Source: Bacillota bacterium
GTDB taxonomy: Bacteria > Bacillota > UBA994 > UBA5500
Assembly: GCA_029781045.1 (NCBI GenBank)
Contig: JAKOXL010000001.1
Span: forward strand, 8,084 to 72,083
Reading direction: 5' to 3'
DNA: 64,000 nt
How positions within the stretch are numbered: position 1 is the first letter of the stretch; each line of letters begins with the position of its first letter. Below the pieces are notes generated by a model, which searched no databases, was not told where the DNA came from, and saw only the letters and a program-made list of their open reading frames with translations. Shown piece by piece: positions 2,402-48,759 of the stretch. The position numbers and the translations under genes were made by a program.

Positions 2402-2624
2402 ACTCGCCGGCAATAAAAGCGACGTCGTATCAAAGCTGGCAACTCCATGGGGTCATTGGCCCAATGGGCAAAGCAGCCCGACAAAGGGCTAGGAACTTGA
2501 GAGTGTACTGAAGAAGTTGCCCATATGCGTTCGTTGCAGGCTACTAAGGCCCAATCAACGCGGTCGTCGTTGCTCTTGGCAGGCACTCTAATATGACCAC
2601 GGCTAAGGGGTACCTCAAAGAAAA

Positions 2625-2658
2625 CAGGGGGCTGTCTTGCGACAGCCCCCTGTTTTCA
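2625..2658. terminator. bidirectional intrinsic terminator hairpin (GGGGCTGTC..GACAGCCCC family) between etfA and trkH
   Basis: cagggggctgtc-ttgc-gacagccccctg followed by ttttc. Lies between convergent genes. Confidence 0.6.
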
Positions 2659-2673
2659 GATATCTATATTTAT

Positions 2674-4122
2674 CTATACTGTAGTCTGCCGCCAGTCCCG
2701 TGGGCTTAGGAGAGCAACCATGGTAAAGAGCTCCAGCCTGCCCATGAGCATGAACAGCGAGAACAATAGCTTGCTGGCACTGCTATAGAAAGAGAAATTT
2801 TGTGCCGGACCTACTAAACGCAAGCCGGGGCCCACGTTGCTCAACGTGGTAATAACGCTGGTCAGGGCCGTTTCCAGATCCACTCCTTCTAAGGAGATAA
2901 CGATGGTGCCAAGCGTTAAGAGTAGCAGATATAGAACCAGAAAACTAGTGATGCTGATGAGAGTATCATCAGACACCACCTTTTTGTCAACCTTTACGGG
3001 CACATAAGCACGGGGATGAAAGATCTTGGCCACTTCCCGCTTAATCAGCTTAGACAGCGAGAGCACGCGGATGACTTTAATACCACCTGCTGTAGACCCC
3101 GCACTGCCGCCAATCAACATGAGCAGAACCAATATCCCTTTGCTAAACGCCGGCCACAAGTCAAAGTCAACAGTGGAATAACCAGTGGTCGTAATAATAG
3201 AGCCAACTTGAAAAAAGGCATCCTTAAGGGCGAGGCCAAAATGCTCATAAGCGCCAGCGATATTTAGACCAATGAGAACTGTGGCCACAGTTATGATACC
3301 TAGATACAAGCGAAACTCCTCGTTATTGATAAGCTGCTTCCACTTTCCTCTGGCGGCATCCACATATAGAGAGAAGTTGGCACCGCAGATAACCATAAAG
3401 ACGCCAACTACCAGCTGCAAGTAAATGCTATTGAAGGCGCCCATGCTTTTGTTGCGAGAAGAAAAGCCTCCCGTGCCAACAGATCCGAAGGTATGCACCA
3501 GCGAATCAAAAAGGCTCATTCCCCCTAGGCATAACAAAACGACCTGCACCAGAGTAATAATGCTATAGGTAACATACAAGACTTTGGCCGTGTCTTTTAT
3601 TCTAGGCGTAATCTTGCCAGCCACCGGCCCTGTAGTTTCGGCCTTATACAGCTGAAATCCGCCAACTCCCAGAGTAGGTAGTAGCGCCACCGTAAAAACA
3701 AGAATGCCCATTCCGCCCATCCAGTGGGTAAAAGAGCGCCAGAAAACTATCCCCCGCGGTAATACTTCCACATCTTTGAGGGCCGTAGCTCCAGTGGTAG
3801 TGAAACCAGAAACGGTCTCAAAAATGGCGTCGGCTATGGTAGGAACGCTATCAGAGAGAATAAAGGGCAAGGCGCCGAATAGCGACACCAGTAACCAGCC
3901 GCAAGCCACAATAGCCAGCCCCTCATGCGCCCTGATCTTCTGGGAGCCTGGAGAAAACCGGCTGAGCAGCCAGCCAATACCGCCAGTTATTGCAATACTC
4001 CAGAAAAATGCAGTAGTGTCATGCTGCTGATAATACAGGGCTATGAACAGCGATGGGAGCATAGATGCGGCTTCAAGCCTTAATAAATCCCCCAAAACCT
4101 TTGCTACTATTCCGTAGTTCAT
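2674..4122 (-). CDS. trkH: TrkH/KtrB family potassium uptake membrane subunit
   Basis: 482-aa polytopic membrane protein with Trk-type repeated M1-P-M2 pore motifs (GFTTTGAT, TTTGYST). Adjacent to trkA. Confidence 0.8.
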   Translation of the reverse strand: MNYGIVAKVLGDLLRLEAASMLPSLFIALYYQQHDTTAFFWSIAITGGIGWLLSRFSPGSQKIRAHEGLAIVACGWLLVSLFGALPFILSDSVPTIADAIFETVSGFTTTGATALKDVEVLPRGIVFWRSFTHWMGGMGILVFTVALLPTLGVGGFQLYKAETTGPVAGKITPRIKDTAKVLYVTYSIITLVQVVLLCLGGMSLFDSLVHTFGSVGTGGFSSRNKSMGAFNSIYLQLVVGVFMVICGANFSLYVDAARGKWKQLINNEEFRLYLGIITVATVLIGLNIAGAYEHFGLALKDAFFQVGSIITTTGYSTVDFDLWPAFSKGILVLLMLIGGSAGSTAGGIKVIRVLSLSKLIKREVAKIFHPRAYVPVKVDKKVVSDDTLISITSFLVLYLLLLTLGTIVISLEGVDLETALTSVITTLSNVGPGLRLVGPAQNFSFYSSASKLLFSLFMLMGRLELFTMVALLSPRDWRQTTV

Positions 4123-5479
4123 GCCGCACGCCTCCTCTACGGCTCGGTTTCATAAAGACATCAAGGGCTTCCACATCTTTGGTCAAGCAGAAAATGATGA
4201 GCCTGTCTAAAGGGTTAATGACTGTGGAACCATTGGGAATGATCACCTGTCCGCCATGGACGATGGCGCCAATAATAATACCCTTCGGAAGCCCCAGCTC
4301 AGCCAGAGACTTGCCAATCACGGCTGGATTATCACCCACGATAAGTTCCGTCACTTCAGCCTCTCCTCCGAGCAAAAGAGAAACCGAGACAACCCGTCCA
4401 CCACGGATAAACCTCAGAATGTGACTAGCTGTAATATTTGTTGGGTTTAAAGCCACATCCACGCCCAGCTTGTCAATTACCTGCACATAGTTGGGACGAC
4501 TAATCTTAGCAATTGTCTTACCCACGCCGGCCTGCTTGGCCAATAGGCACATTAGGAGGTTCTGCTCATCAAAGCCGCTGGCACCAACGAAGGCATCCAT
4601 AGACTGCAGGTCTTCTTCCTCCAGCAAGTTAATGTCGGTGCCATCTCCGTGGATTATGAGAGCATCGTCCAGGTGCTCCGCCAAATACTCGCAGCGGGCC
4701 TTGTCTTGCTCCACGATGGTAACAGCCACGTTGGCTAGGCGCAGTTGTCGGGCCAGATATAGACCTACCTTGCCCCCGCCAAAAATCATGACCTTCTTTA
4801 CCCGCTTCTTGCTATTGGAAAGACCTAAGCGCTCACTCAGTTGGCTTATTCTCTTGCTCTCTCCCATTACATGGACAATGTCATTCTCTAGCAACTCGGT
4901 ATGACCATGGGGAATGATCATTTCCCCGTCGCGAGAGACAGCCACAATGAGTAGGTCTTCTAAACCCAAATCCTTTAGTTGCTTACCTACAAAGCCCTCC
5001 ACTTGACTGACGTTGAAGTCGATCATGGACACTCTGCCTTTAGCAAAATCCTCTGAGTACACAGTGTAGCTGCGGGACAGATAGCGAGATATCTCATTGG
5101 CAGTTGCCAGGTCAGGGTTGACTATATGATCTATACCCATTTCAGCCTTAATAAACCTGAGCTGCTTCGTATATTCGGGGTTGCGGATACGCGCGATCGT
5201 ACGCTTGCAACCCAGTTTCTTGGCGAGGCTACAGATGAGGACGTTAGTTTCGTCGCTACCAGTACAGGCAGTTAATAGGTCATAAGTCTCTATATTTAGC
5301 TCTTTCAACACTTCTAATTCAATGCCATTGGCGTTAACTGTCAACACATCTAGATGATCATTTACACGTTCAATGACTCTCGCATTGGTATCTACCAAAG
5401 TGACATCCACATTGGTATTTAATAAGGATTCGGCCAGTTTGAGCCCCAGTTTCCCGGCTCCAACGACCATGACTTTCAT
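4073..5479 (-). CDS. trkA: Trk system potassium uptake protein TrkA (two NAD-binding plus two TrkA-C domains)
   Basis: Two GxGxxG Rossmann motifs (VVGAGKLG, IFGGGKVG). Start chosen at MKVMVVGAG with a GGAAGGAG RBS; the ORF track start at 5500 lies inside the RBS. Confidence 0.8.
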   Translation of the reverse strand: MKVMVVGAGKLGLKLAESLLNTNVDVTLVDTNARVIERVNDHLDVLTVNANGIELEVLKELNIETYDLLTACTGSDETNVLICSLAKKLGCKRTIARIRNPEYTKQLRFIKAEMGIDHIVNPDLATANEISRYLSRSYTVYSEDFAKGRVSMIDFNVSQVEGFVGKQLKDLGLEDLLIVAVSRDGEMIIPHGHTELLENDIVHVMGESKRISQLSERLGLSNSKKRVKKVMIFGGGKVGLYLARQLRLANVAVTIVEQDKARCEYLAEHLDDALIIHGDGTDINLLEEEDLQSMDAFVGASGFDEQNLLMCLLAKQAGVGKTIAKISRPNYVQVIDKLGVDVALNPTNITASHILRFIRGGRVVSVSLLLGGEAEVTELIVGDNPAVIGKSLAELGLPKGIIIGAIVHGGQVIIPNGSTVINPLDRLIIFCLTKDVEALDVFMKPSRRGGVRHELRNSSKGFGGFIKA

Positions 5480-5631: not shown

Positions 5632-6618
5632 CTATTTGTAAACAATATCACGGCTTAATGAATGTACTTGTTGCACCCACACTTTCCCCTGGGTATAGGT
5701 CAGTTCGCTGCCATCATCTAGTAGGTATCTAAAGTGGGCTTCTGGCTTATCCTTATGCCAGGTACCGCTCAGTAACTTCCCGTCCCGCAAGAACAAAGCT
5801 TCCCCTTGCCCGATGATATTGATCTCACTCTGAATACCGTCTACCGGTACCTCCACCGTCTTAACCGGTGCTTCAATGATGATAATGTTATGGGCACGAA
5901 TGGCTTCCTGCTCCGCCGTCAGATGGGCCGCACCATTTAGCATTCGGTTATAGCACTGGCTTTCCTCATCATAAACCCAAGAAACCTCGTATTTGGAACT
6001 ATATCTAATATGCAGCTCCTCCACATCCTGGGCTTCGGGCCATTCACCAGTAGGCAGCGCAGGTAGACCATGGGGTTGATAACCGCGTTTGCTGGCTAAT
6101 GCTAACACCGCTTCGCTGGTGGTAAAGGTGGCATGGGGGCTCTTGCGCTGCCGATCCACAAAGAAGGTGGACCCCGCATTAGTAATGGCACATATGCTCT
6201 TAATGCCTAAGGGTTTGCGCAACTCCATGGCATCCATATTGCCGCCCACATGCACCAAAGGTAGATCATAGGGCTTGGCCACCTGCAGGTAATAATAACG
6301 GATGCTGCGGATGGGGCCTACACGCACCGGATTTTGCCAATAAAAGGCGGCCAGAAACCGGGTAATGCCCGTTTCACAGACGAACTCGTAGACAATATCC
6401 GCTTTATCCAAACCGTATTGGGGGCGGGCCCCACTATGATTATCAATCATTGCCATAAAGGCCGCAGCCAGTTCCGGCGTGGGCTCGGGCTCAACGGGTG
6501 TAACAATAGGGTCTGTTGTCGGCCCATCACTGGGCTCCGGTGCATTGACGGGGCTACAACTTGCCATAATAAGCGTAGCCACCAGTATCAACAACAAGAA
6601 AGAAGAACGTTTCAACAT
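5632..6618 (-). CDS. DUF3048 (YerB-like) lipoprotein
   Basis: Signal peptide plus lipobox (LIMASCSP) and a Pro/Thr-rich linker. The similarity to the DUF3048 family is recalled from memory, not computed. AAGGAGGG RBS. Confidence 0.45.
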   Translation of the reverse strand: MLKRSSFLLLILVATLIMASCSPVNAPEPSDGPTTDPIVTPVEPEPTPELAAAFMAMIDNHSGARPQYGLDKADIVYEFVCETGITRFLAAFYWQNPVRVGPIRSIRYYYLQVAKPYDLPLVHVGGNMDAMELRKPLGIKSICAITNAGSTFFVDRQRKSPHATFTTSEAVLALASKRGYQPHGLPALPTGEWPEAQDVEELHIRYSSKYEVSWVYDEESQCYNRMLNGAAHLTAEQEAIRAHNIIIIEAPVKTVEVPVDGIQSEINIIGQGEALFLRDGKLLSGTWHKDKPEAHFRYLLDDGSELTYTQGKVWVQQVHSLSRDIVYK

Positions 6619-10812: not shown

Positions 10813-12060
10813 TTAAAGTATGGACTCGCTAACCCCGGCAATGCCGGCCATCATTGTGGCCAGAAGGAAGATGATCTGCGGCCCCTTGTAGGCATTGGTA
10901 GAGTCCCACCATTCTTTGGTGGTATGCACCATGCCCGCGTTGCCACCACCGCCAACACAGACGGCTGGAATGCCCTTGGCAATGGGCGGATTGGCGTTGG
11001 TGTTACCTCCGTGCCCCAGTGTGGGCTCCATACCCATGTCTTTAATCAAGGCATAGGTGGCCTGCACTATCGGAGCGTCTGCCGGTTGGGTGCCGGCCTT
11101 TACGTCCACATAGGTTTCAATGTCGTAGGTGATGGTGTCCATCCCCCAGCGGGCGGTTTCTTCGGCGCAGGCCTCTTTGATGCACTGCAGAACTTTCCCG
11201 TACAGGATATCGAGCTCCACTTGGCAGTCGGAGCGCATGTTCATCTTGATGGTGGCTTTGGGAACGATGGCATGTATAGCCGCATCGTTACCAGCGTGGA
11301 AGTTGCTGACGGCGTAAGTAGTCTTGGGCGATACGGGCACTTCCAGATCAGCAATTTTGGCTACCGCCCGGGCCGCCGCATGTAGCGGATTGGCCACCTT
11401 GCCAAAGGCCCCATAGGCGTGGCCACCAATGCCGTAGAAGTTGACGGCAAAGGTCTTCATTCCCGTTGCCTCGTAGGTAATGGTGTCAATGCTGGCGCCA
11501 TCGATATTGATACACCCGATGATATTGTCATGGTCAGCAAGAAAATCCTTCATGCCACCAAAACCACCCATGCCCTCCTCACGGGATGTGCCCATGAAGA
11601 TGAGGTCATGCTCGGTTTCAATCTGGCTGTGGTTGAAGGCGCGTAGAACCGATAGTACGGCCGCCAAACCTCTAGTGTCATCGGCCATGCCAGGGCAGTG
11701 GTAAACCCCATCCCTTGGTTCTGGGCGACCGGCGACTGTGCCTTTAGGGAAGACCGTGTCCAGATGGCCCTCTATGACAATGGCCTTACCTGTGTTACCT
11801 TTGCCCCGCCGCACGCCGAAGGCATTGCCATGGCGATCCACCTGTACGTCCTCCAGACCTAAGGCCGCCAGCTTATCGGCAAAAGCCCTAGCTCTATCCC
11901 ACTCCTCAAAGGTGGGCGCCTCAATGACAACCAGATCCAGCTGATCCTCCAAGGTGTTCTGCTCATCAGCCTGAATGAACTCCATCCCCCGCTGTACCGC
12001 CTCTAAACCTTTTAGCCGCTCATACGTCTTGGCAATCCTCTCCGACACTACGTACTCCAT
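10813..12060 (-). CDS. M20 family metallopeptidase (ArgE/DapE/CPG2-like)
   Basis: HxD...GHLDTVFP metal-binding motifs and an M20 dimerisation-domain pattern. Start at MEYVVS with an AGGGAGG RBS (the track ORF is longer). Confidence 0.75.
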   Translation of the reverse strand: MEYVVSERIAKTYERLKGLEAVQRGMEFIQADEQNTLEDQLDLVVIEAPTFEEWDRARAFADKLAALGLEDVQVDRHGNAFGVRRGKGNTGKAIVIEGHLDTVFPKGTVAGRPEPRDGVYHCPGMADDTRGLAAVLSVLRAFNHSQIETEHDLIFMGTSREEGMGGFGGMKDFLADHDNIIGCINIDGASIDTITYEATGMKTFAVNFYGIGGHAYGAFGKVANPLHAAARAVAKIADLEVPVSPKTTYAVSNFHAGNDAAIHAIVPKATIKMNMRSDCQVELDILYGKVLQCIKEACAEETARWGMDTITYDIETYVDVKAGTQPADAPIVQATYALIKDMGMEPTLGHGGNTNANPPIAKGIPAVCVGGGGNAGMVHTTKEWWDSTNAYKGPQIIFLLATMMAGIAGVSESIL

Positions 12061-12157: not shown

Positions 12158-12181
12158 AGGGCTGTCGCAAAACAGCCCCTT
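12158..12181 (-). terminator. terminator hairpin (GGGCTGTCGCAAAACAGCCC) between the CBM-repeat gene and the M20 peptidase gene
   Basis: aagggctgtcgcaaaacagccccttat. A T-run follows on the minus strand (ctttttatctttt). Confidence 0.5.
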
Positions 12182-16022: not shown

Positions 16023-16117
16023 TGGCGGAGGAGGCGGGATTCGAACCCGCGACACGGTTTTTGACCGTGTACTCGATTTCCAGTCGAGCGCCTTAGACCA
16101 TCTCGGCCACCCCTCCA
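16023..16117 (-). tRNA. tRNA-Ser (anticodon GGA), class II with long variable arm, CCA encoded
   Basis: The reverse complement starts GGAGGGGTGGCCGAG...; anticodon stem-loop CTCGA-CTGGAAA-TCGAG; GGTTCGAATCC T-arm; 3' CCA. Confidence 0.85.
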
Positions 16118-24120: not shown

Positions 24121-24212
24121 TGGCGGAGAGAGTGAGATTCGAACTCACGGAGCAGGATCGCTGCTCACCCGCTTTCGAGGCGGGCGCCTTAAACCACTCG
24201 GCCATCTCTCCC
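24121..24212 (-). tRNA. tRNA-Ser (anticodon CGA), class II, CCA encoded
   Basis: The reverse complement begins GGGAGAGATGGCCGAGTGG; anticodon loop CTCGAAA; long variable arm; GGTTCGAATC T-arm. Confidence 0.85.
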
Positions 24213-24673
24213 TATTTTTCTCTTAACTCCGCAAAAAAGCGACGTAACAGCTGACTGCTTTCCTCAGCCAAAACCCCTGAGGTAACTTCCACCCGGTGGT
24301 TCAACCGTTCATCCCGCACCAGATCCAGCAAGCTACCGCAGGCACCAGCCTTCTTATCAGGGGCCGCATATACCAAATGGGGTATGCGGGCCTGCACAAT
24401 GGCTCCTGCGCACATAGGGCAGGGCTCCAAGGTAACGTAAAGCGTACACCTGGTGAGCCGCCAGCCGCCTAAAACTCGGTTGGCTTGGCGAATGGCCAGC
24501 ATCTCGGCATGGGCCGTGGCATCGCGCTCTGTTTCCCGCAAATTGTGGGCTTTAGCGATAATAGCACCGTCGCGTACAATGACGGCCCCCACCGGGGTCT
24601 CCCCCAACTCATAGGCCTTCCGCGCTTCCGCCAGTGCTATCTGCATAAAACTCTCATGGAGTTCTTGCATCGC
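24212..24673 (-). CDS. tadA: tRNA adenosine(34) deaminase TadA
   Basis: CDA-fold zinc motifs HAEMLAI...PCPMCAGAI. Start taken at MQELHESFMQIALAEA; the longer track ORF runs into tRNA-Arg. The stop codon abuts or overlaps the tRNA-Ser(CGA) 5' end. Confidence 0.8.
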   Translation of the reverse strand, partial: AMQELHESFMQIALAEARKAYELGETPVGAVIVRDGAIIAKAHNLRETERDATAHAEMLAIRQANRVLGGWRLTRCTLYVTLEPCPMCAGAIVQARIPHLVYAAPDKKAGACGSLLDLVRDERLNHRVEVTSGVLAEESSQLLRRFFAELREK

Positions 24674-24745
24674 CAACCACAACCCTTTAAGTCTATCTGC
24701 AAAGACAGACAGTGCGCCTCCCAGCGCACTTACCTTGATTGCTAA

Positions 24746-24821
24746 TGGCGCACCCGGAGGGAATCGAACCCCCGACACGCGGTTTAGGAAACCGCTGCTC
24801 TATCCACTGAGCTACGGATGC
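24746..24821 (-). tRNA. tRNA-Arg (anticodon CCT)
   Basis: Reverse complement GCATCCGTAGCTCAGTGGATAGAGC...; anticodon loop TTCCTAA; ...GGTTCGATTCC...CCA. Confidence 0.85.
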
Positions 24822-24827
24822 ATAAAA

Positions 24828-24904
24828 TGGCGCGCCCGGCAGGATTCGAACCTGCGACCACCGGATTCGTAGTCCGTTACTCTATCCAGCTGAGCTACGG
24901 GCGC
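24828..24904 (-). tRNA. tRNA-Arg (anticodon ACG)
   Basis: Reverse complement GCGCCCGTAGCTCAGCTGGATAGAGT..; anticodon loop CTACGAA; ..GGTTCGAATCC..CCA. Closely resembles canonical bacterial tRNA-Arg(ACG). Confidence 0.85.
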
Positions 24905-24912
24905 ATAAAAAA

Positions 24913-25008
24913 TGGCGGAGAGGGCGGGATTCGAACCCGCGACACGGCTTTGGGCCGTGTAACCGCTTAGCAGGCGGCCGCCTTCGACCTACTCGGCCAC
25001 CTCTCCGC
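24913..25008 (-). tRNA. tRNA-Ser (anticodon GCT), class II
   Basis: Reverse complement GCGGAGAGGTGGCCGAGTAGG..; anticodon loop CTGCTAA; long variable arm; GGTTCGAATCC; CCA. Confidence 0.85.
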
Positions 25009-25087
25009 ATCGCCTATCTATTGTAACACGTCTTCACCGGGCTGCGCAACCACCATTTACTGCCGCTAGCCCGAAAAGAGACTTTGC

Positions 25088-25178
25088 TGGCGGAGAGAGA
25101 GGGATTCGAACCCCCGGTCCCTTGCGGGATCACTGGTTTTCAAGACCAGCGCCATAAACCACTCGGCCATCTCTCCGC
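25088..25178 (-). tRNA. tRNA-Ser (anticodon TGA), class II
   Basis: Reverse complement GCGGAGAGATGGCCGAGTGGTTTA..; anticodon loop CTTGAAA; long variable arm; GGTTCGAATCC; CCA. Confidence 0.85.
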
Positions 25179-28212: not shown

Positions 28213-28245
28213 GGGGGCTGTCGCAAGACAGCCCCTTTGGTTTTT
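28213..28245 (+). terminator. intrinsic terminator after aspB (GGGGCTGTC-GCAA-GACAGCCCC plus T-run)
   Basis: ggggctgtc-gcaa-gacagcccc followed by tttggttttt. Confidence 0.65.
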
Positions 28246-38481: not shown

Positions 38482-38515
38482 AGAAGGGCTGTCGCAAGAC
38501 AGCCCTTCTTTCTTT
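38482..38515. terminator. bidirectional terminator (GGGCTGTC-GCAA-GACAGCCC family)
   Basis: agaagggctgtc-gcaa-gacagcccttct followed by ttctttc. Lies between convergent genes. Confidence 0.6.
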
Positions 38516-39786: not shown

Positions 39787-40797
39787 ATGTCCGAAAAATT
39801 GGTTGAAATAGTACGCGGTGATCTGGTGGAGAGCATACACCGGGGCGACCTGGCTGTTGTGGATTATACCGGTCGTCTACTCTATTCGGTAGGCGACCCG
39901 CAAGGAAAGATTACATTTATTCGCTCGGCCTCTAAGCCGATCCAGGCCATTCCCATTATTACCAGTGGCGCTGCAGATCACTTCGGCTTTACCGAGCAAG
40001 AATTGGCCGTATTCTGTGCCTCCCACGCAGCGGAGCAAATCCATGTGGAAACAGTGCTGGGTATCTTGGAGAAAATTGGGCTCACAGCTTCTGCCCTGCA
40101 ATGTGGTCGCCATCTACCCTTTAACAAAGAAGCAGCCGATAAGTTGGTGCGCAGTGGACAAGAACCCAGCGAGGTCCATTGCAACTGCTCCGGCAAGCAT
40201 TCCGGCATGCTGGCACTCGCCCAACACATGGGTTGGGATGTGGCCAGTTATCTGAGCATTGAACACCCGGTGCAACAAGCCATGCTACAAAGTATGGCTA
40301 CCTTCGCTGGCATGGAAGCCAAAGATATTGCCATCGGTGTAGATGGCTGTGGCGTTCCCGTCTTCGGCCTGCCGGTGTATAACATGGCCCTTGCCTGGGC
40401 GCGGCTCGCTAACCCTGAGAGTCTAGATTCGGCCAATGCCCAAGCCGCCCAACGCATTACCCGGGCCATGACCGCCCATCCACTGTTAGTCGCTGGCACT
40501 GGACGTCTCTGCACTGGCCTTATGACCCATCTCAACGGTCGCTTAGTGGCTAAGAGCGGAGCCGAAGGGGTCTATTGCGTTGGTATTCTAGGACAAGGTA
40601 TCGGTATAGCCGTCAAAATCGAGGACGGTAACGGCCGGGCTACCGGACCCGCCATCATCGATGCTTTGAGACAAATAGGGTTCTTGACCCCGGCCGACTT
40701 GGAGAACTTGAAGGAATTCCACAACCCCATCATCTATAACCATCGGCGCGATGTGGTGGGCGAGACCCGCGCCGCTTTCACCCTCGTAAGACACTAA
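39787..40797 (+). CDS. asparaginase (Rhizobium-type L-asparaginase II family)
   Basis: N-terminal VEIVRGDLVESIHRGDLAVVD...FIRSASKPIQA pattern of the PF06089 family. 336 aa. Assignment is from memory. Confidence 0.55.
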   Translation: MSEKLVEIVRGDLVESIHRGDLAVVDYTGRLLYSVGDPQGKITFIRSASKPIQAIPIITSGAADHFGFTEQELAVFCASHAAEQIHVETVLGILEKIGLTASALQCGRHLPFNKEAADKLVRSGQEPSEVHCNCSGKHSGMLALAQHMGWDVASYLSIEHPVQQAMLQSMATFAGMEAKDIAIGVDGCGVPVFGLPVYNMALAWARLANPESLDSANAQAAQRITRAMTAHPLLVAGTGRLCTGLMTHLNGRLVAKSGAEGVYCVGILGQGIGIAVKIEDGNGRATGPAIIDALRQIGFLTPADLENLKEFHNPIIYNHRRDVVGETRAAFTLVRH

Positions 40798-40837
40798 GGT
40801 CCGATGCCTCCGCAGGCGCATAAAGTGCAGTCGCACT

Positions 40838-41066
40838 AAGGTTTTCAAGTACCCCGTGCGGATACTGCTATGGGGCCGTTGGTCATACGCACGGCGCGTT
40901 GGGCCCAACAATCAGTAGAACGAAGGAGCCAAGGGAAAGCAGCGACAACAGGCCCAGCTGCCCTTGAACAGCTCATTCCGACCGAGGGTGGGCACAGGCG
41001 CTCTAGTGTGACCACGGCCATCGGTAGAACAAACAACAAGGGGCTGTTTTGCGACAGCCCCTTTTA
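40838..41066 (+). repeat. copy 1 of a ~230-nt conserved noncoding element (candidate sRNA or MITE-like repeat) ending in a GGGGCTGT..ACAGCCCC terminator hairpin
   Basis: About 75% identical to 47349-47590. Shared blocks are gtcgcacta(a/g)gg, atacgcac(g/a)gcgcg, aaagcag(c/a)gacaa, agctcattccgac and gcgctctagt, then the family hairpin. Confidence 0.5.
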
Positions 41067-41158
41067 TGGTCTGGAGGGCAGTGGGCAAACAAGAGCCCTA
41101 GCACCCAACCGCTATCTGAGATCTTCCTAGGACAACCCTTCTTAACGGCAATTCTCAC

Positions 41159-42265
41159 TTAGGCACGGGAAAGCACGCTAATGCTGCCGTTCTTGCTAGC
41201 AGCCATCACCTGCGTTTTGATGGCCGCCTGCTGCCAGTTTTCCGTAGATGCCTTATAGTGTTGCTTATCCTCTACACTAGCCACAAGGGCTGGCAAATCA
41301 ACACTTACACGGCCGCTTCGTGTCTGCAGGTCCAGCTGGTACCCCCTGGCGTCTCCCGTAGCCAGCTCAACTTGCACCGAACCATTGGTGGTAGTTAGAG
41401 TAATGGTGCCATCGCTGGTGGGTTCCAGAACCCCGCGAATCGAGCCATTCTTGCTAGTTGCTAAGAGGGAACCAACTTGAGCCGTAACCGTTATGCTGCC
41501 GTTCTTGGTCTCCAATTGCCAATCATCATGGGATTGCCCTCGTACCTTGATGGAGCCGTTCTTGGTCACAGCCCTACCGGCACCACAAACCTCTTCCACG
41601 GAAATAGAACCGTTCTTGCTCACTAGATCCATCTGGGTCAGCAACCGACGAGGGATGGCAATGTCAAAGGAGACGGAGCCGCGGATTTCTTCGCTCACTC
41701 GCCAGGCCAACTGCAGTTCCCCATCTTTCTGTTCCTCGTTTTGCAGCAAATATTGCTCCACCAACTGCCGGGCCTCTGCCTCACTATCGGCTTGAACTCG
41801 AAAACGTAACTGCACCGCGATATGTTCATCATCACTGGCCCGCAACCGTAGGTTACCGTTCTTGCTACTAATGTCCAAGTGTAATCTCTCTACCGTATCG
41901 GGAATGGCAACGGTCCGCTGTTCTTCCCAGGTGTAATGGGTGCCCCAGTGGCCGCCCAAAAACCCCTGCAGCCAGTCGGCTAGGCTCTGCCCCTCTCCCA
42001 ACTCCTGACTAATAGCCGATCTCACCTCTTGTAGGGCATCCTCTACCTCACTGGTGATTTCCTCTCCGATCTCCCGCAGTTCCTGCCCCAGTTCTTCCAA
42101 CAATGATGGGCTTTCCCTCATCACCGGCACCGGGATAGGTCCAACCTCTGGAACCTCCGGGGGCACCGACGTCCCTTCCAGTGCCTTGAGCAGGGCCAGG
42201 GCCTCTTCCGAGTTGATACGCCCCTGCTCCAACAGTTTTAGAATCCGCATTCTCGCTTCCGACAT
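41159..42265 (-). CDS. DUF4097 (YvlB-like putative adhesin / beta-helical repeat) protein with N-terminal helical domain
   Basis: N-terminal MSEARMRILKLLEQGRINSEEALALLKA motif. The C-terminus has repeated KNGSI(x)V beta-strand repeats. Paralog of the upstream gene. Confidence 0.6.
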   Translation of the reverse strand: MSEARMRILKLLEQGRINSEEALALLKALEGTSVPPEVPEVGPIPVPVMRESPSLLEELGQELREIGEEITSEVEDALQEVRSAISQELGEGQSLADWLQGFLGGHWGTHYTWEEQRTVAIPDTVERLHLDISSKNGNLRLRASDDEHIAVQLRFRVQADSEAEARQLVEQYLLQNEEQKDGELQLAWRVSEEIRGSVSFDIAIPRRLLTQMDLVSKNGSISVEEVCGAGRAVTKNGSIKVRGQSHDDWQLETKNGSITVTAQVGSLLATSKNGSIRGVLEPTSDGTITLTTTNGSVQVELATGDARGYQLDLQTRSGRVSVDLPALVASVEDKQHYKASTENWQQAAIKTQVMAASKNGSISVLSRA

Positions 42266-46553: not shown

Positions 46554-47333
46554 ATGATGTTCTTTATTCCTAGACGCAAAATCCTTCTCCTCACCAGTCT
46601 GATATTAGTACTGGCCGTGGGTTTTACCGCCAGCCGCTTCTACTCACCGGAGCAAGCGGGGCAAGTGATCAGCACGTTGCTCAACTTCAACCGTAAGGTC
46701 CCTATATACTGTGTGCAAACTGATGAAAAGCGTATTGCCATCAGCTTCGATGCGGCCTGGGGCGCCGATCGTACCGATGAGTTACTGACCATTCTCGACG
46801 AGTACGATGTGAAAACCACCTTTTTCCTGGTGGCCTTCTGGCTAGAAAGATACCCGGAGGTGGCAGCCCGCATCGCTGCTGCTGGCCATGAAATTGGCAA
46901 TCATAGTGCCACTCATCCGCACATGGCCCAGCTTTCCAAAGAGCAAATCCGCCAAGAAATACTAACCACCCACCAGCTGATTAAGGAGATCACCCAGCAA
47001 GAAGCTAAACTATTTCGCCCACCCTTCGGCGAGTACAACAACCTGCTCTTAGATACCTTAGAAGAGTTGGGCTACTACACTATCCAGTGGAGCATCGATT
47101 CCCTGGACTGGCGTCCCACTACACCAGAGGAAATCGTACAGCGGGTAACCAGTAAGATAGCTCCCGGTGCCATCGTTCTCTTCCATAATAACGGGGAGCA
47201 TACACCGGCCGCCCTGCGACCCATATTGGAGTACTGTCGACAAGAGGGCTATGAGGTGGTGCCCATTTCCGAACTCTTAATCAAAGGAGATTACTATATC
47301 GACAAGAGCAACGGTATGATGAGACCCAAATAG
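46554..47333 (+). CDS. polysaccharide deacetylase family protein (NodB domain, PdaB-like)
   Basis: N-terminal TM segment. NodB motifs (FDAAWG, HSATHPHM, RPPFGEYN, LFHNNG). Confidence 0.75.
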   Translation: MMFFIPRRKILLLTSLILVLAVGFTASRFYSPEQAGQVISTLLNFNRKVPIYCVQTDEKRIAISFDAAWGADRTDELLTILDEYDVKTTFFLVAFWLERYPEVAARIAAAGHEIGNHSATHPHMAQLSKEQIRQEILTTHQLIKEITQQEAKLFRPPFGEYNNLLLDTLEELGYYTIQWSIDSLDWRPTTPEEIVQRVTSKIAPGAIVLFHNNGEHTPAALRPILEYCRQEGYEVVPISELLIKGDYYIDKSNGMMRPK

Positions 47334-47348
47334 GAGGCACATTAAGGG

Positions 47349-47590
47349 TGCCGTCGCACTAGGGTCTCTAGCATCCGAACCAGGAAGCTATTGCTATTGG
47401 GGCCGCAGATATACGCACAGCGCGCTGGACCCAATAATTGGGAGAGTGAGGGAGGCAAGGAAAAGCAGAGACAAGGGGCCAATTGCCTTGGGAGCCGAGC
47501 TCATTCCGACAGAGCTGGGCTGCGCTCTAGTATGGCCATGGCCCGCAGGTGCATAACGAAACAGGGGCTGTCGTGAGACAGCCCCTAATG
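47349..47590 (+). repeat. copy 2 of the ~230-nt conserved noncoding element (candidate sRNA/MITE-like), ending in the GGGGCTGTC-GTGA-GACAGCCCC hairpin
   Basis: See copy 1. Lies between convergent genes. Confidence 0.5.
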
Positions 47591-47601
47591 CTTTTCAAGG
47601 C

Positions 47602-48759
47602 CTATACCACCGAAGGTTCTCTGAACAACTCGCCACGGGCAAAGCGGCCTAGACTCATGGGCTCGATGGGAATCTCCGTTTTCTGTCCGAGGATACTCTG
47701 GGCCAACAGCACCCCCACCATGGGGGCGATCATAAAACCATGGCCGCTAAAGCCGCAGGCCAGATAGAAGCCGGGTACCTCCTCCACCGGCCCCAGAATG
47801 GGGGTTCTATCGGGCGTCATATTGTAAAGTCCCGCCCACTGGCGCACCACCCGGATATGCCGTAGGGGTGGCAGCAGCCAGGTTATTTTCTCAGCCATTT
47901 CCTCCAGGAACTGCCAACTAGCTTCCATATTATAGCCTGGCTTCTCCGTCGGATCCCCTAACCCCATGATGAAGCTGCCATGGGGAGTTTGCTGGCAGTA
48001 GAGGTTATGATGGAAAGACATTACCATGGGGCGCTGCATAGGTTCCACCGGCTCAGTAATAAGAATCTGATGCCGCTCCGAGTGGGTAGGAATCTCGAGG
48101 CCCACCATAGCAGCCACATCCTGCGACCAACCTCCTGCCGCGTTGACTACTACGGGGGTAGAAACATAGCCCCGGTCGGTATGCACCCCTTGGATGCGGT
48201 CGCCATCCCGCTCAATACCGGTGACCGTCGTATTGGTATAGATCTCGACTCCTAAGCGGCGTGCTGCCTTGGCATAGGCGTCGGTTACTTTAAAGGGATT
48301 GCAATGGCCATCGGTGGGGCAATAGGTGGCGCCCAACAGCTGCTCCGTGTTCAAATGGGGTACAACTTCCTTGGCCTCCGCCGGTGTCAACAGTTCTACC
48401 TGTAAGCCGTGGGCCTTTTGCAGGGCCACATTCTTTTTGAATTGCTCCCAGCCGGCTTCCGTATAGGCTAGCAGCAGATAGCCACCCTGGTTAAACTCAA
48501 TGTCATCGTCGTAGTCCAGTTCTTCATTCATGTTCTCAAACATACGCACACTGGCCATGGACATACGTAGGTTCATCTCCGTACCCCATTGGGCCCGCAC
48601 TCCAGCCCCACAGCGGCCGGTGGCTCCACTGGCCAAGAAATTTCGCTCCAACACACAGATATTGGTAAGCCCCCGCTTGGCCAGATTATAGGCAATAGAA
48701 ACACCGTTAACACCTCCACCAATGATTACCGCATCAGCAGTCTTCTTCACGGGGCTCAC
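47602..48759 (-). CDS. FAD-dependent oxidoreductase (DAO family; sarcosine oxidase beta / OoxB / proline dehydrogenase beta-like)
   Basis: N-terminal ADAVIIGGGVNGVSIAYNLAKRG dinucleotide-binding motif. 385 aa. Last gene of an overlapping five-gene operon. Confidence 0.75.
   Translation of the reverse strand: MSPVKKTADAVIIGGGVNGVSIAYNLAKRGLTNICVLERNFLASGATGRCGAGVRAQWGTEMNLRMSMASVRMFENMNEELDYDDDIEFNQGGYLLLAYTEAGWEQFKKNVALQKAHGLQVELLTPAEAKEVVPHLNTEQLLGATYCPTDGHCNPFKVTDAYAKAARRLGVEIYTNTTVTGIERDGDRIQGVHTDRGYVSTPVVVNAAGGWSQDVAAMVGLEIPTHSERHQILITEPVEPMQRPMVMSFHHNLYCQQTPHGSFIMGLGDPTEKPGYNMEASWQFLEEMAEKITWLLPPLRHIRVVRQWAGLYNMTPDRTPILGPVEEVPGFYLACGFSGHGFMIAPMVGVLLAQSILGQKTEIPIEPMSLGRFARGELFREPSVV

Follow-up and report, generated by a model that had tools for sequence, protein, structure and literature searches.

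A dispersed intergenic element with a covarying rod fold, perhaps a structured RNA-level repeat of 3' UTRs, in uncultured Bacillota

The copy-2 locus and its counterparts in the window

The window, that is the whole 64-kb stretch of Bacillota DNA analysed here, contains an intergenic spacer bounded on one side by the stop codon of a + strand polysaccharide deacetylase gene and on the other by a - strand FAD-dependent oxidoreductase gene (DAO), as the initial annotation had described (Table 1). The spacer had also been proposed to hold the second copy of a noncoding element, and this is confirmed by blastn, since region 47334-47601 gave a single long match to the window, at 40814-41062 (71.4% over 259 nt, E=7e-25). 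The homologous span of copy 2 covers 47335-47586, is 71% identical to 40814-41062 and terminates at a 10-bp hairpin. In a MAFFT alignment of copies 1 and 2 the mean column identity is 80%, with long invariant blocks, and in both copies the element starts 3-40 nt past the upstream stop codon. A reading of the element as a small protein-coding gene was rejected, the ORFs at 47391-47576 and 40870-41130 not being common to the copies. Moreover, whole modules and indels of 1, 2, 3 and 4 nt distinguish the copies from one another.

Table 1. Coordinates of copy 2, of its surroundings and of the related features in the window
Feature	Position	Strand	Remarks
Polysaccharide deacetylase gene (PF01522)	46554-47333	+	upstream co-oriented gene; stop TAG 47331-47333
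Small 5' hairpin GGCAC-ATTAAGG-GTGCC	47336-47352	+	3 nt past deacetylase stop; common only to copy 1 (GCGC-ATAAA-GTGC)
Copy-2 5' extension	47353-47398	+	module 0, variable stretch, conserved GCTATT (47393-47398)
Module 0, GTCGCACTAGGGTCTCTAGC	47353-47372	+	contains CACTAG of the initial annotation
Copy-2 structured core, reduced form	47399-47545	+	cmsearch 101 bits
P1a	47400-47405/47539-47544	+	pair coordinates from alignment A4
P1b	47410-47414/47530-47534	+	G47408-C47536 pairs too; A47409.G47535 mismatch
P2	47419-47423/47522-47526	+	alignment A4
P3, CCCA/TGGG	47430-47433/47516-47519	+	register set by eye
P5	47444-47447/47499-47502	+	alignment A4
P5b	47450-47451/47495-47496	+	alignment A4
P4a	47456-47460/47486-47490	+	alignment A4
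Best-conserved unpaired block, CTCATTCCGACAGAG	47500-47514	+	large internal loop, 3' side; opposite AATAATTGGGA (47433-47443)
A/C-rich linker between P1 and terminator	47546-47562	+	partly conserved (yCCGGAAC) in MTKW01 copies
Bidirectional intrinsic terminator hairpin, 10-11 bp	47563-47597	+	T-rich tails on both strands; member of window-wide hairpin family
FAD-dependent oxidoreductase gene (DAO, PF01266)	47602-48759	-	convergent; last gene of - strand operon; synteny anchor
Asparaginase II gene	39787-40797	+	copy-1 neighbour
Copy 1	40820-41064	+	core 40872-41021, conserved loop block 40975-40988, terminator hairpin 41038-41063
DUF4097 gene	41159-42265	-	copy-1 neighbour, convergent
Copy 3, decayed	about 2440-2653	+	between + gene (1217-2401) and convergent - gene (2674-4140)
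GGGCTGT-N-ACAGCCC hairpin sites	2629-2648, 12159-12178, 28215-28234, 38486-38505, 41041-41060, 47565-47584		all at gene ends

The window holds three copies in total, the third of which is decayed. In copy 3 the 3' tail GGCACTCTAATATGACCACGGCT (about 2583-2605, within a tail region at 2578-2605), the linker and the hairpin (about 2625-2652) are clear, similarity upstream of the tail is weak and the CTCATTCCGAC loop is missing. Searched with a covariance model (R1, see below), the window shows exactly two full copies, at 40872-41021 (121 bits) and 47399-47545 (101 bits; E=7e-22), with 15 bits on the opposite strand; copy 3 was not detected in this search. Next to copy 1, a 9-nt direct repeat (CACTAAGGT) is found at 40792-40800, overlapping the asparaginase stop, and at 40835-40843, in the 5' block of the copy; it could be due to chance or be a trace of the origin of copy 1.

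The hairpin described at 47563-47586 is present and consists of the pair A47563-T47586, of GGGGCTGTC (47564-47572), of the loop GTGA and of GACAGCCCC (47577-47585). It had been taken for the signature of the element, and in this respect the initial annotation has to be corrected: it belongs to a separate hairpin family which is also found at element-free gene ends, both in the window and in relatives. The pattern GGGCTGT-N(2-14)-ACAGCCC occurs at six sites in the 64-kb window, against 0.01 expected by chance. Three of these sites are preceded by a copy of the element, and the hairpins at 12159, 28215 and 38486 are plain gene-end terminators without the element, those at 28215 and 38486 being identical (GGGCTGTCGCAAGACAGCCC). 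Furthermore, the orthologous gene ends of element-free relatives bear a hairpin of the same type, and a terminator scan called the hairpin on the - strand at both copies 1 and 2 and also on the + strand at copy 2. Given the element-free sites, the gene ends of the relatives and the terminator scan, the hairpin is a local intrinsic terminator and not an element signature.

Fold and covariation of the element

Single-sequence folds of both strands were mutually inconsistent and did not discriminate the strand; they were set aside for comparative analysis. Eight colinear cores were aligned with E-INS-i after removal of their large insertions, and RNAalifold, applied to this alignment ahead of any model building, returned de novo a single nested rod. 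From the outside inwards, the rod is formed by P1a (GGGCCG/CGGCCC), P1b (GGUCAUAC/GUAUGACC), P2 (AGCGC/GCGCU) and P3 (GCCCA/UGGGC), and in its inner part by P5 (GAGY/GCUC), P5b (RG/CY), P4a (GCCAAGG/CCUUGGC), an A-rich bulge and P4b (GCAGCGAC/GUCGCUGC). Between P3 and P5 lies a large asymmetric internal loop, the strands of which (5' AAYAAT..GGAGYGARGGAG and 3' GCTCATTCCRACAG, AUUCCRACAGnG) are nearly invariant. It is the unpaired strands of the internal loop, and not the termini, which are the best-conserved parts of the element; the CTCATTCCGACAGAG block of copy 2 is nearly invariant across 17 copies. In the apical part of copy 2 (47461-47485) the 3' strand of P4b is gone. By eye only, the conserved loops were also considered as K-turns, T-loops or rRNA mimics; the support was too thin for any of these to be claimed.

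The helices are maintained by compensatory substitutions. In the seed pair table, G-C exchanges with A-U and C-G with G-C in P3, C-G exchanges with U-A in P2 and P1a, C-G with G-C, U-A or A-U in P4a and C-G with G-C in P4b; exchanges occur in P5b too. The diverged copy L022a (loci outside the window carry L numbers) retains P4b in a wholly different sequence, GAGCGGUCAG/CUGGCCGCUC. In an 11-copy model alignment 91.3% of the cells are paired, compared to 31-40% when the partners are slid by ±1-3 positions and to 85.5 ± 0.7% in column shuffles (0/500). Fourteen pairs are changed on both sides, against 1-5 in the slid controls and 6.8 ± 1.7 in the shuffles, none of the 500 reaching 14, and the covariation score is 0.177, against 0.013-0.043 when slid and 0.106 ± 0.009 when shuffled (0/500). 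This covariation rests on 11-13 related sequences and on an alignment (A4) fitted to the model; the slid control preserves the relatedness and yet falls far below the observed values. The structured element is thus real.

The covariance model R1 comprises 168 positions and 49 pairs. Copies 1 and 2 match it over model positions 1-168, partly by construction as both are in the seed, and the non-seed copies L025, L003b, L022a, L005 and L009 score 52-150 bits.

A closing helix between CACTAG and CTAGTG arms had been considered for the element, with the remark that, if it exists, substitutions that weaken it would favour a repeat over an RNA. In copy 2, CACTAG (47357-47362) and CTAGTA (47527-47532) both exist. 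However, this helix can form in no copies other than copy 1, copy 2 and L004 and is not kept in L007 or L011. On its 3' side it overlaps the conserved P1b, and it competes with P1. The actual closing helix is P1, GGGCCG..GGTCATAC / GTATGACC..CGGCCC. The 5' block GUCGCACUARGG is module 0, common to the window and MTKW01-type copies, and its partner UAGURUGAC is the part which overlaps the 3' arm of P1b. The 5' extension block is homologous in copy 1, L004, L007 and L011, its pairing with the 3' tail not being conserved. In copies 1 and 2 and in L004, the pairing between the 5' block and the 3' tail is about as stable as P1 (-25 to -27 compared to -20 to -30 kcal/mol). Given that these arms are not the closing helix of the family, weak pairing there is no argument against RNA structure.

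With regard to the strand, the ratio of G.U to A.C was 22:13 on alignment A4 and 11:8 on alignment A3, and the RNAalifold energies were -44.0 for the given strand and -46.6 for its reverse complement. Both strands fold about equally well because the rod is nearly self-complementary. The weak bias and the similar energies therefore leave only the context for assigning the sense strand: the terminator invariably stands 3' of the element, where it shields it from the transcription of the convergent gene.

Distribution and turnover of the family

Databases were scanned with patterns derived from the blocks invariant between copies 1 and 2 and biased toward the 3' modules. The scan of species-representative genomes gave three loci, in two uncultured Bacillota MAGs, and the metagenome scan gave nine, in two metagenomes (MTKW01 and the fermentation metagenome UOOI01), the strict pattern matching only 4-5 contigs per metagenome. 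No match was obtained in a scan of viral contigs, nor in plasmids and phages. Against Rfam 15, only tRNAs reach gathering in the window, namely a cluster of five tRNA genes (24124-25176) and one isolated tRNA (16026-16116), all on the - strand. At E<=10, region 47200-47750 gave two chance matches of about 12 bits (STAXI and SNORD49), and six loci with long forms gave no Rfam 15 match at E<=1. Searches of the literature by keyword and by conserved sequence strings returned chance primer matches only. Judging from these searches, the family appears to be uncatalogued and, as sampled, restricted to a narrow clade of uncultured Bacillota.

Around 20 more copies were recovered from uncultured Bacillota MAGs and from metagenomes, and together they outline a modular rod whose core measures 147-312 nt and contains nine helices. 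Large optional modules enter at two fixed points. An insertion of ~70 nt at one helix tip is seen in L004, L009, L010, L012 and L025 and an optional branch, module X, in L003a, L003b, L010, L011 and L012; forms without the 5' half are L002, L006 and, in part, L005. On the MTKW01 contigs L006 and L007, 'NN' scaffold joins lie inside the P4 region, and these two copies may be chimeric assemblies of different copies.

Thirteen of the 15 copies with a definable upstream gene lie 50-170 nt downstream of a co-oriented ORF (three closer, one farther), and most copies occupy convergent intergenic spacers. A strong GC hairpin is found 10-25 nt beyond the 3' end in 12 of 18 copies. The genes next to the copies are of unrelated kinds (asparaginase, deacetylase, peptidase and others), and an all-vs-all comparison of the ORFs within ±4 kb of the copies revealed no protein common to the loci, only synteny or spurious ORFs through the element. 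The sites are set among housekeeping genes of conserved order close to oriC, the window adjoining gidA/gidB/parAB.

Syntenic relatives were retrieved through the DAO protein. At the copy-2 site, the long form is present in the same orientation in L012 (88% DAO identity) and inverted in L025/L026 (87%), the latter about 83% identical to L012. A diverged copy is present in L022 (85%), plus two more within 20 kb. In L021 (92%) the 5' half is lost; by eye, P1a-5' is joined at a GCCG microhomology to the 3' strand where P4c meets P4b. Of the element, L027/L028 (84-86%) retain no more than 3'-tail remnants and L023/L024 (76-79%) nothing. The spacer of L024 (76%; 11150-11828) is 679 nt long and carries an unrelated direct repeat of ~250 nt (GGCATCGCCAGCGCCGGAGGGGTGCGCTCTGACGGGGCTGTGGGAGATGGGAGA...).

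At the copy-1 site, only a terminator is found in L022, L023, L024, L027 and L028, in spacers of 54-134 nt, and the closest relative, L029/L030 (89% asparaginase identity), carries an internally deleted derivative in which a 5' stub and the 3' tail are kept. This derivative led us to reject the 5'-truncation series as a sign of retro-insertion, as it corresponds to an internal deletion. The spacer that holds the copy L022a is 613 nt long, against 290 nt in L024 and 39-136 nt in L021, L023, L025 and the window; on these spacer lengths, L022a is a second lineage-specific gain. In the 5' flank of the L010 copy (~470-505), a 3'-tail remnant of the diverged L022-type subfamily is found on the opposite strand (GGTCGTGGACCTGCTCGCGAGCGTGTGGCCCA), which suggests adjacent or nested insertions. 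The comparison of sequences shows that new loci acquire copies and that, at syntenic sites, copies are inverted, undergo internal deletion or disappear.

The neighbouring DAO gene is essentially saturated at its 4-fold sites, with 27-52% identity between genomes, and the element cores are 68-83% identical (71-83% for most pairs, positional orthologs included). The similarity of the cores while 4-fold sites are saturated therefore points to selection or to homogenisation among copies, not to neutral persistence. The similarity of copies within a genome (UOOI01-type versus MTKW01-type signatures) could reflect gene conversion or master-copy amplification instead of selection in place. The decay or loss seen in L021, L027, L028, L029 and copy 3 shows that individual copies are dispensable, as expected of a selfish repeat.

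Nature of the element

The initial annotation had left open whether the element is an RNA or a repeat. It was right to do so, both being true of a dispersed family with compensated helices, and it is in the specifics of the hairpin and of the closing helix that it erred. We hold it to be probable, by a modest measure, that the element is a structured RNA-level dispersed repeat located in 3' UTRs just before intrinsic terminators. At copy 2 the element would have no promoter of its own; the upstream gene would be transcribed through it, with the element as 3' UTR, and transcription would stop 17 nt further on at the bidirectional intrinsic terminator already in place. The folded domain would act in the RNA and would most likely bind a protein or protect the 3' end, as a module of the host mRNA or of a 3'-UTR-derived fragment, with the invariant internal loop as putative recognition surface. 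The family would multiply by duplication, with new copies settling in 'safe' positions close to terminators, mostly in convergent intergenic regions.

The known kinds that come nearest are the ERIC/IRU and pneumococcal BOX repeats, which are dispersed, modular and intergenic and fold as RNA hairpins inside transcripts, and structured 3'-UTR elements. By description, the element resembles ERIC/IRU and BOX in being multi-copy, intergenic, usually in presumably transcribed 3' or inter-cistronic regions and built as a long imperfect palindrome, with size variants due to fixed-site insertions or module loss, no transposase of its own and a patchy presence at syntenic sites. In contrast, it has no known sequence relationship to them, it belongs to a different phylum, and it is larger and more ornate, with nine helices, optional branches, a conserved asymmetric loop and a low copy number (2-3 per 64 kb). 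With 3'-UTR-derived sRNAs and structured 3' UTR stabilisers, which use the intrinsic terminator of the mRNA, it shares the position between stop codon and terminator, the apparent lack of an own promoter and a structured domain directly 5' of the terminator; however, a 3'-UTR-derived sRNA is a single locus belonging to one gene, whereas here one fold stands behind unrelated genes. OLE, ROOL, GOLLD and raiA are also multi-helix RNAs of Bacillota or metagenomes with invariant loops, variable insertions and a context uninformative on function. Unlike them, the element, which has no Rfam match to any of these families, has a smaller core, multiple copies, little stability per locus and no associated protein genes.

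If the fold is expressed, it would be a new multi-helix RNA architecture with clear covariation, from a MAG-only Bacillota lineage outside Rfam 15. Its combination of conserved structure with repeat-like turnover may help to test selfish DNA against domesticated RNA modules at mRNA 3' ends. Without a model such as R1, the copies would be mis-scored as 'conserved intergenic unknowns'.

The main rival, which we consider unlikely but by no means negligible, is a MITE-like or palindromic non-autonomous DNA element, whose fold would form in ssDNA or as a cruciform, with fold and loop recognised by a transposase or recombinase; it would insert ahead of terminator hairpins, transcription and RNA folding being incidental. 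The turnover described above speaks for it, with lineage-specific gains (the copy-1 site that is terminator-only in five relatives, the L022a spacer), an opposite orientation at one site (L025/L026), an inverted remnant beside L010, three copies within 20 kb in L022 and decay at many loci. Moreover, the P1 arms amount to an imperfect inverted repeat of some 15 bp, the two strands fold equally well and half of the six window hairpins are preceded by a copy. However, there is no transposase or common protein within ±4 kb of about 20 copies and no direct repeat (TSD) was seen to flank copy 1, copy 2 or L004; the sites to compare for a TSD are a deletion derivative in the closest relative L029 and more distant empty sites that are unalignable. 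The P1 arms resemble TIRs, with conserved sequence running past them on both sides (GCTAT and yCCGGAAC), and it is the strands of the internal loop, not the termini, that are conserved best. Furthermore, at about 71-80% identity, copies sharing a genome are old and not the product of a recent burst, the partial copies are explained by in-place deletion, and neither plasmids nor phages gave a copy.

The known MITEs (Correia/NEMIS, RUP) are likewise non-coding, with inverted-repeat-like arms (here P1), gains at new loci, nested or adjacent remnants and a preference for gene ends, but the element differs from them in that no TSD or strictly terminal TIR was found, by conservation beyond the arms and by old, divergent copies with compensated helices. 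A structured scaffold followed by a short variable 3' segment, with 5'-shortened versions keeping the 3' end, recalls the IS200/IS605 PATEs and the TnpB omega-RNA. Nevertheless no tnpA, tnpB or iscB stands beside any copy, no Rfam IS605-orfB or HEARO match was obtained, the truncations are in-place deletions and, in contrast to an omega-RNA, the 3' linker is partly conserved and hence not guide-like. Integron attC sites were rejected, as the ends show by eye no GTTRRRY/RYYYAAC core sites and the copies lie in housekeeping synteny, mostly in convergent spacers.

A more speculative pair of ideas, which we regard as doubtful, is that of a new class of terminator-targeting mobile structured RNA, SINE-like and with no known mobilising enzyme, whose ornate fold would be under selection in the RNA and which would spread, possibly by an RNA or ssDNA intermediate, to positions immediately 5' of intrinsic terminators, or of a new protein-binding ornate RNA whose invariant loop (GCUCAUUCCGACAG / GGAGYGARGGAG) would bring a conserved cellular factor to the 3' ends of mRNAs.

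Somewhat more doubtful still is the possibility that the copies are independent trans-acting sRNA genes with their own promoter and terminator, pairing with targets or sequestering a protein in the manner of multicopy sRNAs or of RNAs of the 6S or CsrB type. The terminator on the 3' side in 12 of 18 copies would suit such genes, as would the GGA-rich conserved strand AAGGAGCGAGGGAGCCAAGGAA. At L003b and L002 the upstream gene is divergent and an own promoter would be needed if they are expressed; by eye, an extended -10-like TGATATAAT is seen ~100 nt upstream of L003b (L003 ~6025-6035, - strand). A scan for consensus sigma-70-like promoters before copy 1, copy 2, L003b and L002 found none, TGATATAAT not being called because its -35 is poor. 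Against independent genes also stand the start of copies 1 and 2 so close behind the upstream stop and the lack of a match to the Rfam models of 6S and other sRNAs. Like 6S RNA, the element is a rod some 150-200 nt long whose large internal loop is set between helices, but RF00013 is unmatched at E<=10, the element is multi-copy (at least three in 64 kb) and within putative 3' UTRs, and its loop is asymmetric and conserved in sequence.

It is very improbable that the element is a cis-regulator of a neighbour gene, that is a riboswitch or attenuator in which the 5' block and P1b compete for the 3' tail as a switch. The alternative pairing is about as stable as P1 in copies 1 and 2 and in L004, and the L010 copy is followed by a co-oriented gene with an RBS, but the neighbours are unrelated, most copies follow a gene and are opposed by a convergent one, and the family does not conserve the alternative pairing.

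A generic REP-type or terminator repeat without higher-order structure, or a chance similarity, is scarcely credible: the terminal hairpin is indeed a generic repeated palindrome, but the homology extends over 250 nt (E=7e-25), is kept across genomes with saturated neutral sites and comes with multi-helix covariation, so that the structureless REP-type repeat entertained in the initial annotation was not what was found, and the core measures 150-310 nt compared to about 35 nt for REP. REP/BIME was likewise rejected for the element as a whole, which is not a palindrome of 20-40 nt; only the separate terminal hairpin is REP-like.

The GGGCTGT-N-ACAGCCC hairpins may be a clade-specific terminator or a REP-like family in their own right. 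The copies and the hairpin family coincide with contig ends in the metagenome assemblies of this organism. Contig breaks were considered as evidence of multiple copies and mostly rejected, the breaks falling on the hairpin at 41033-41072 and not on the core. Independent Logan and JGI assemblies of the window organism (L013-L020, L032) end at or near this copy-1 hairpin, one of them inside the core (~40965), and it appears that palindromic repeated hairpins fragment the assemblies.
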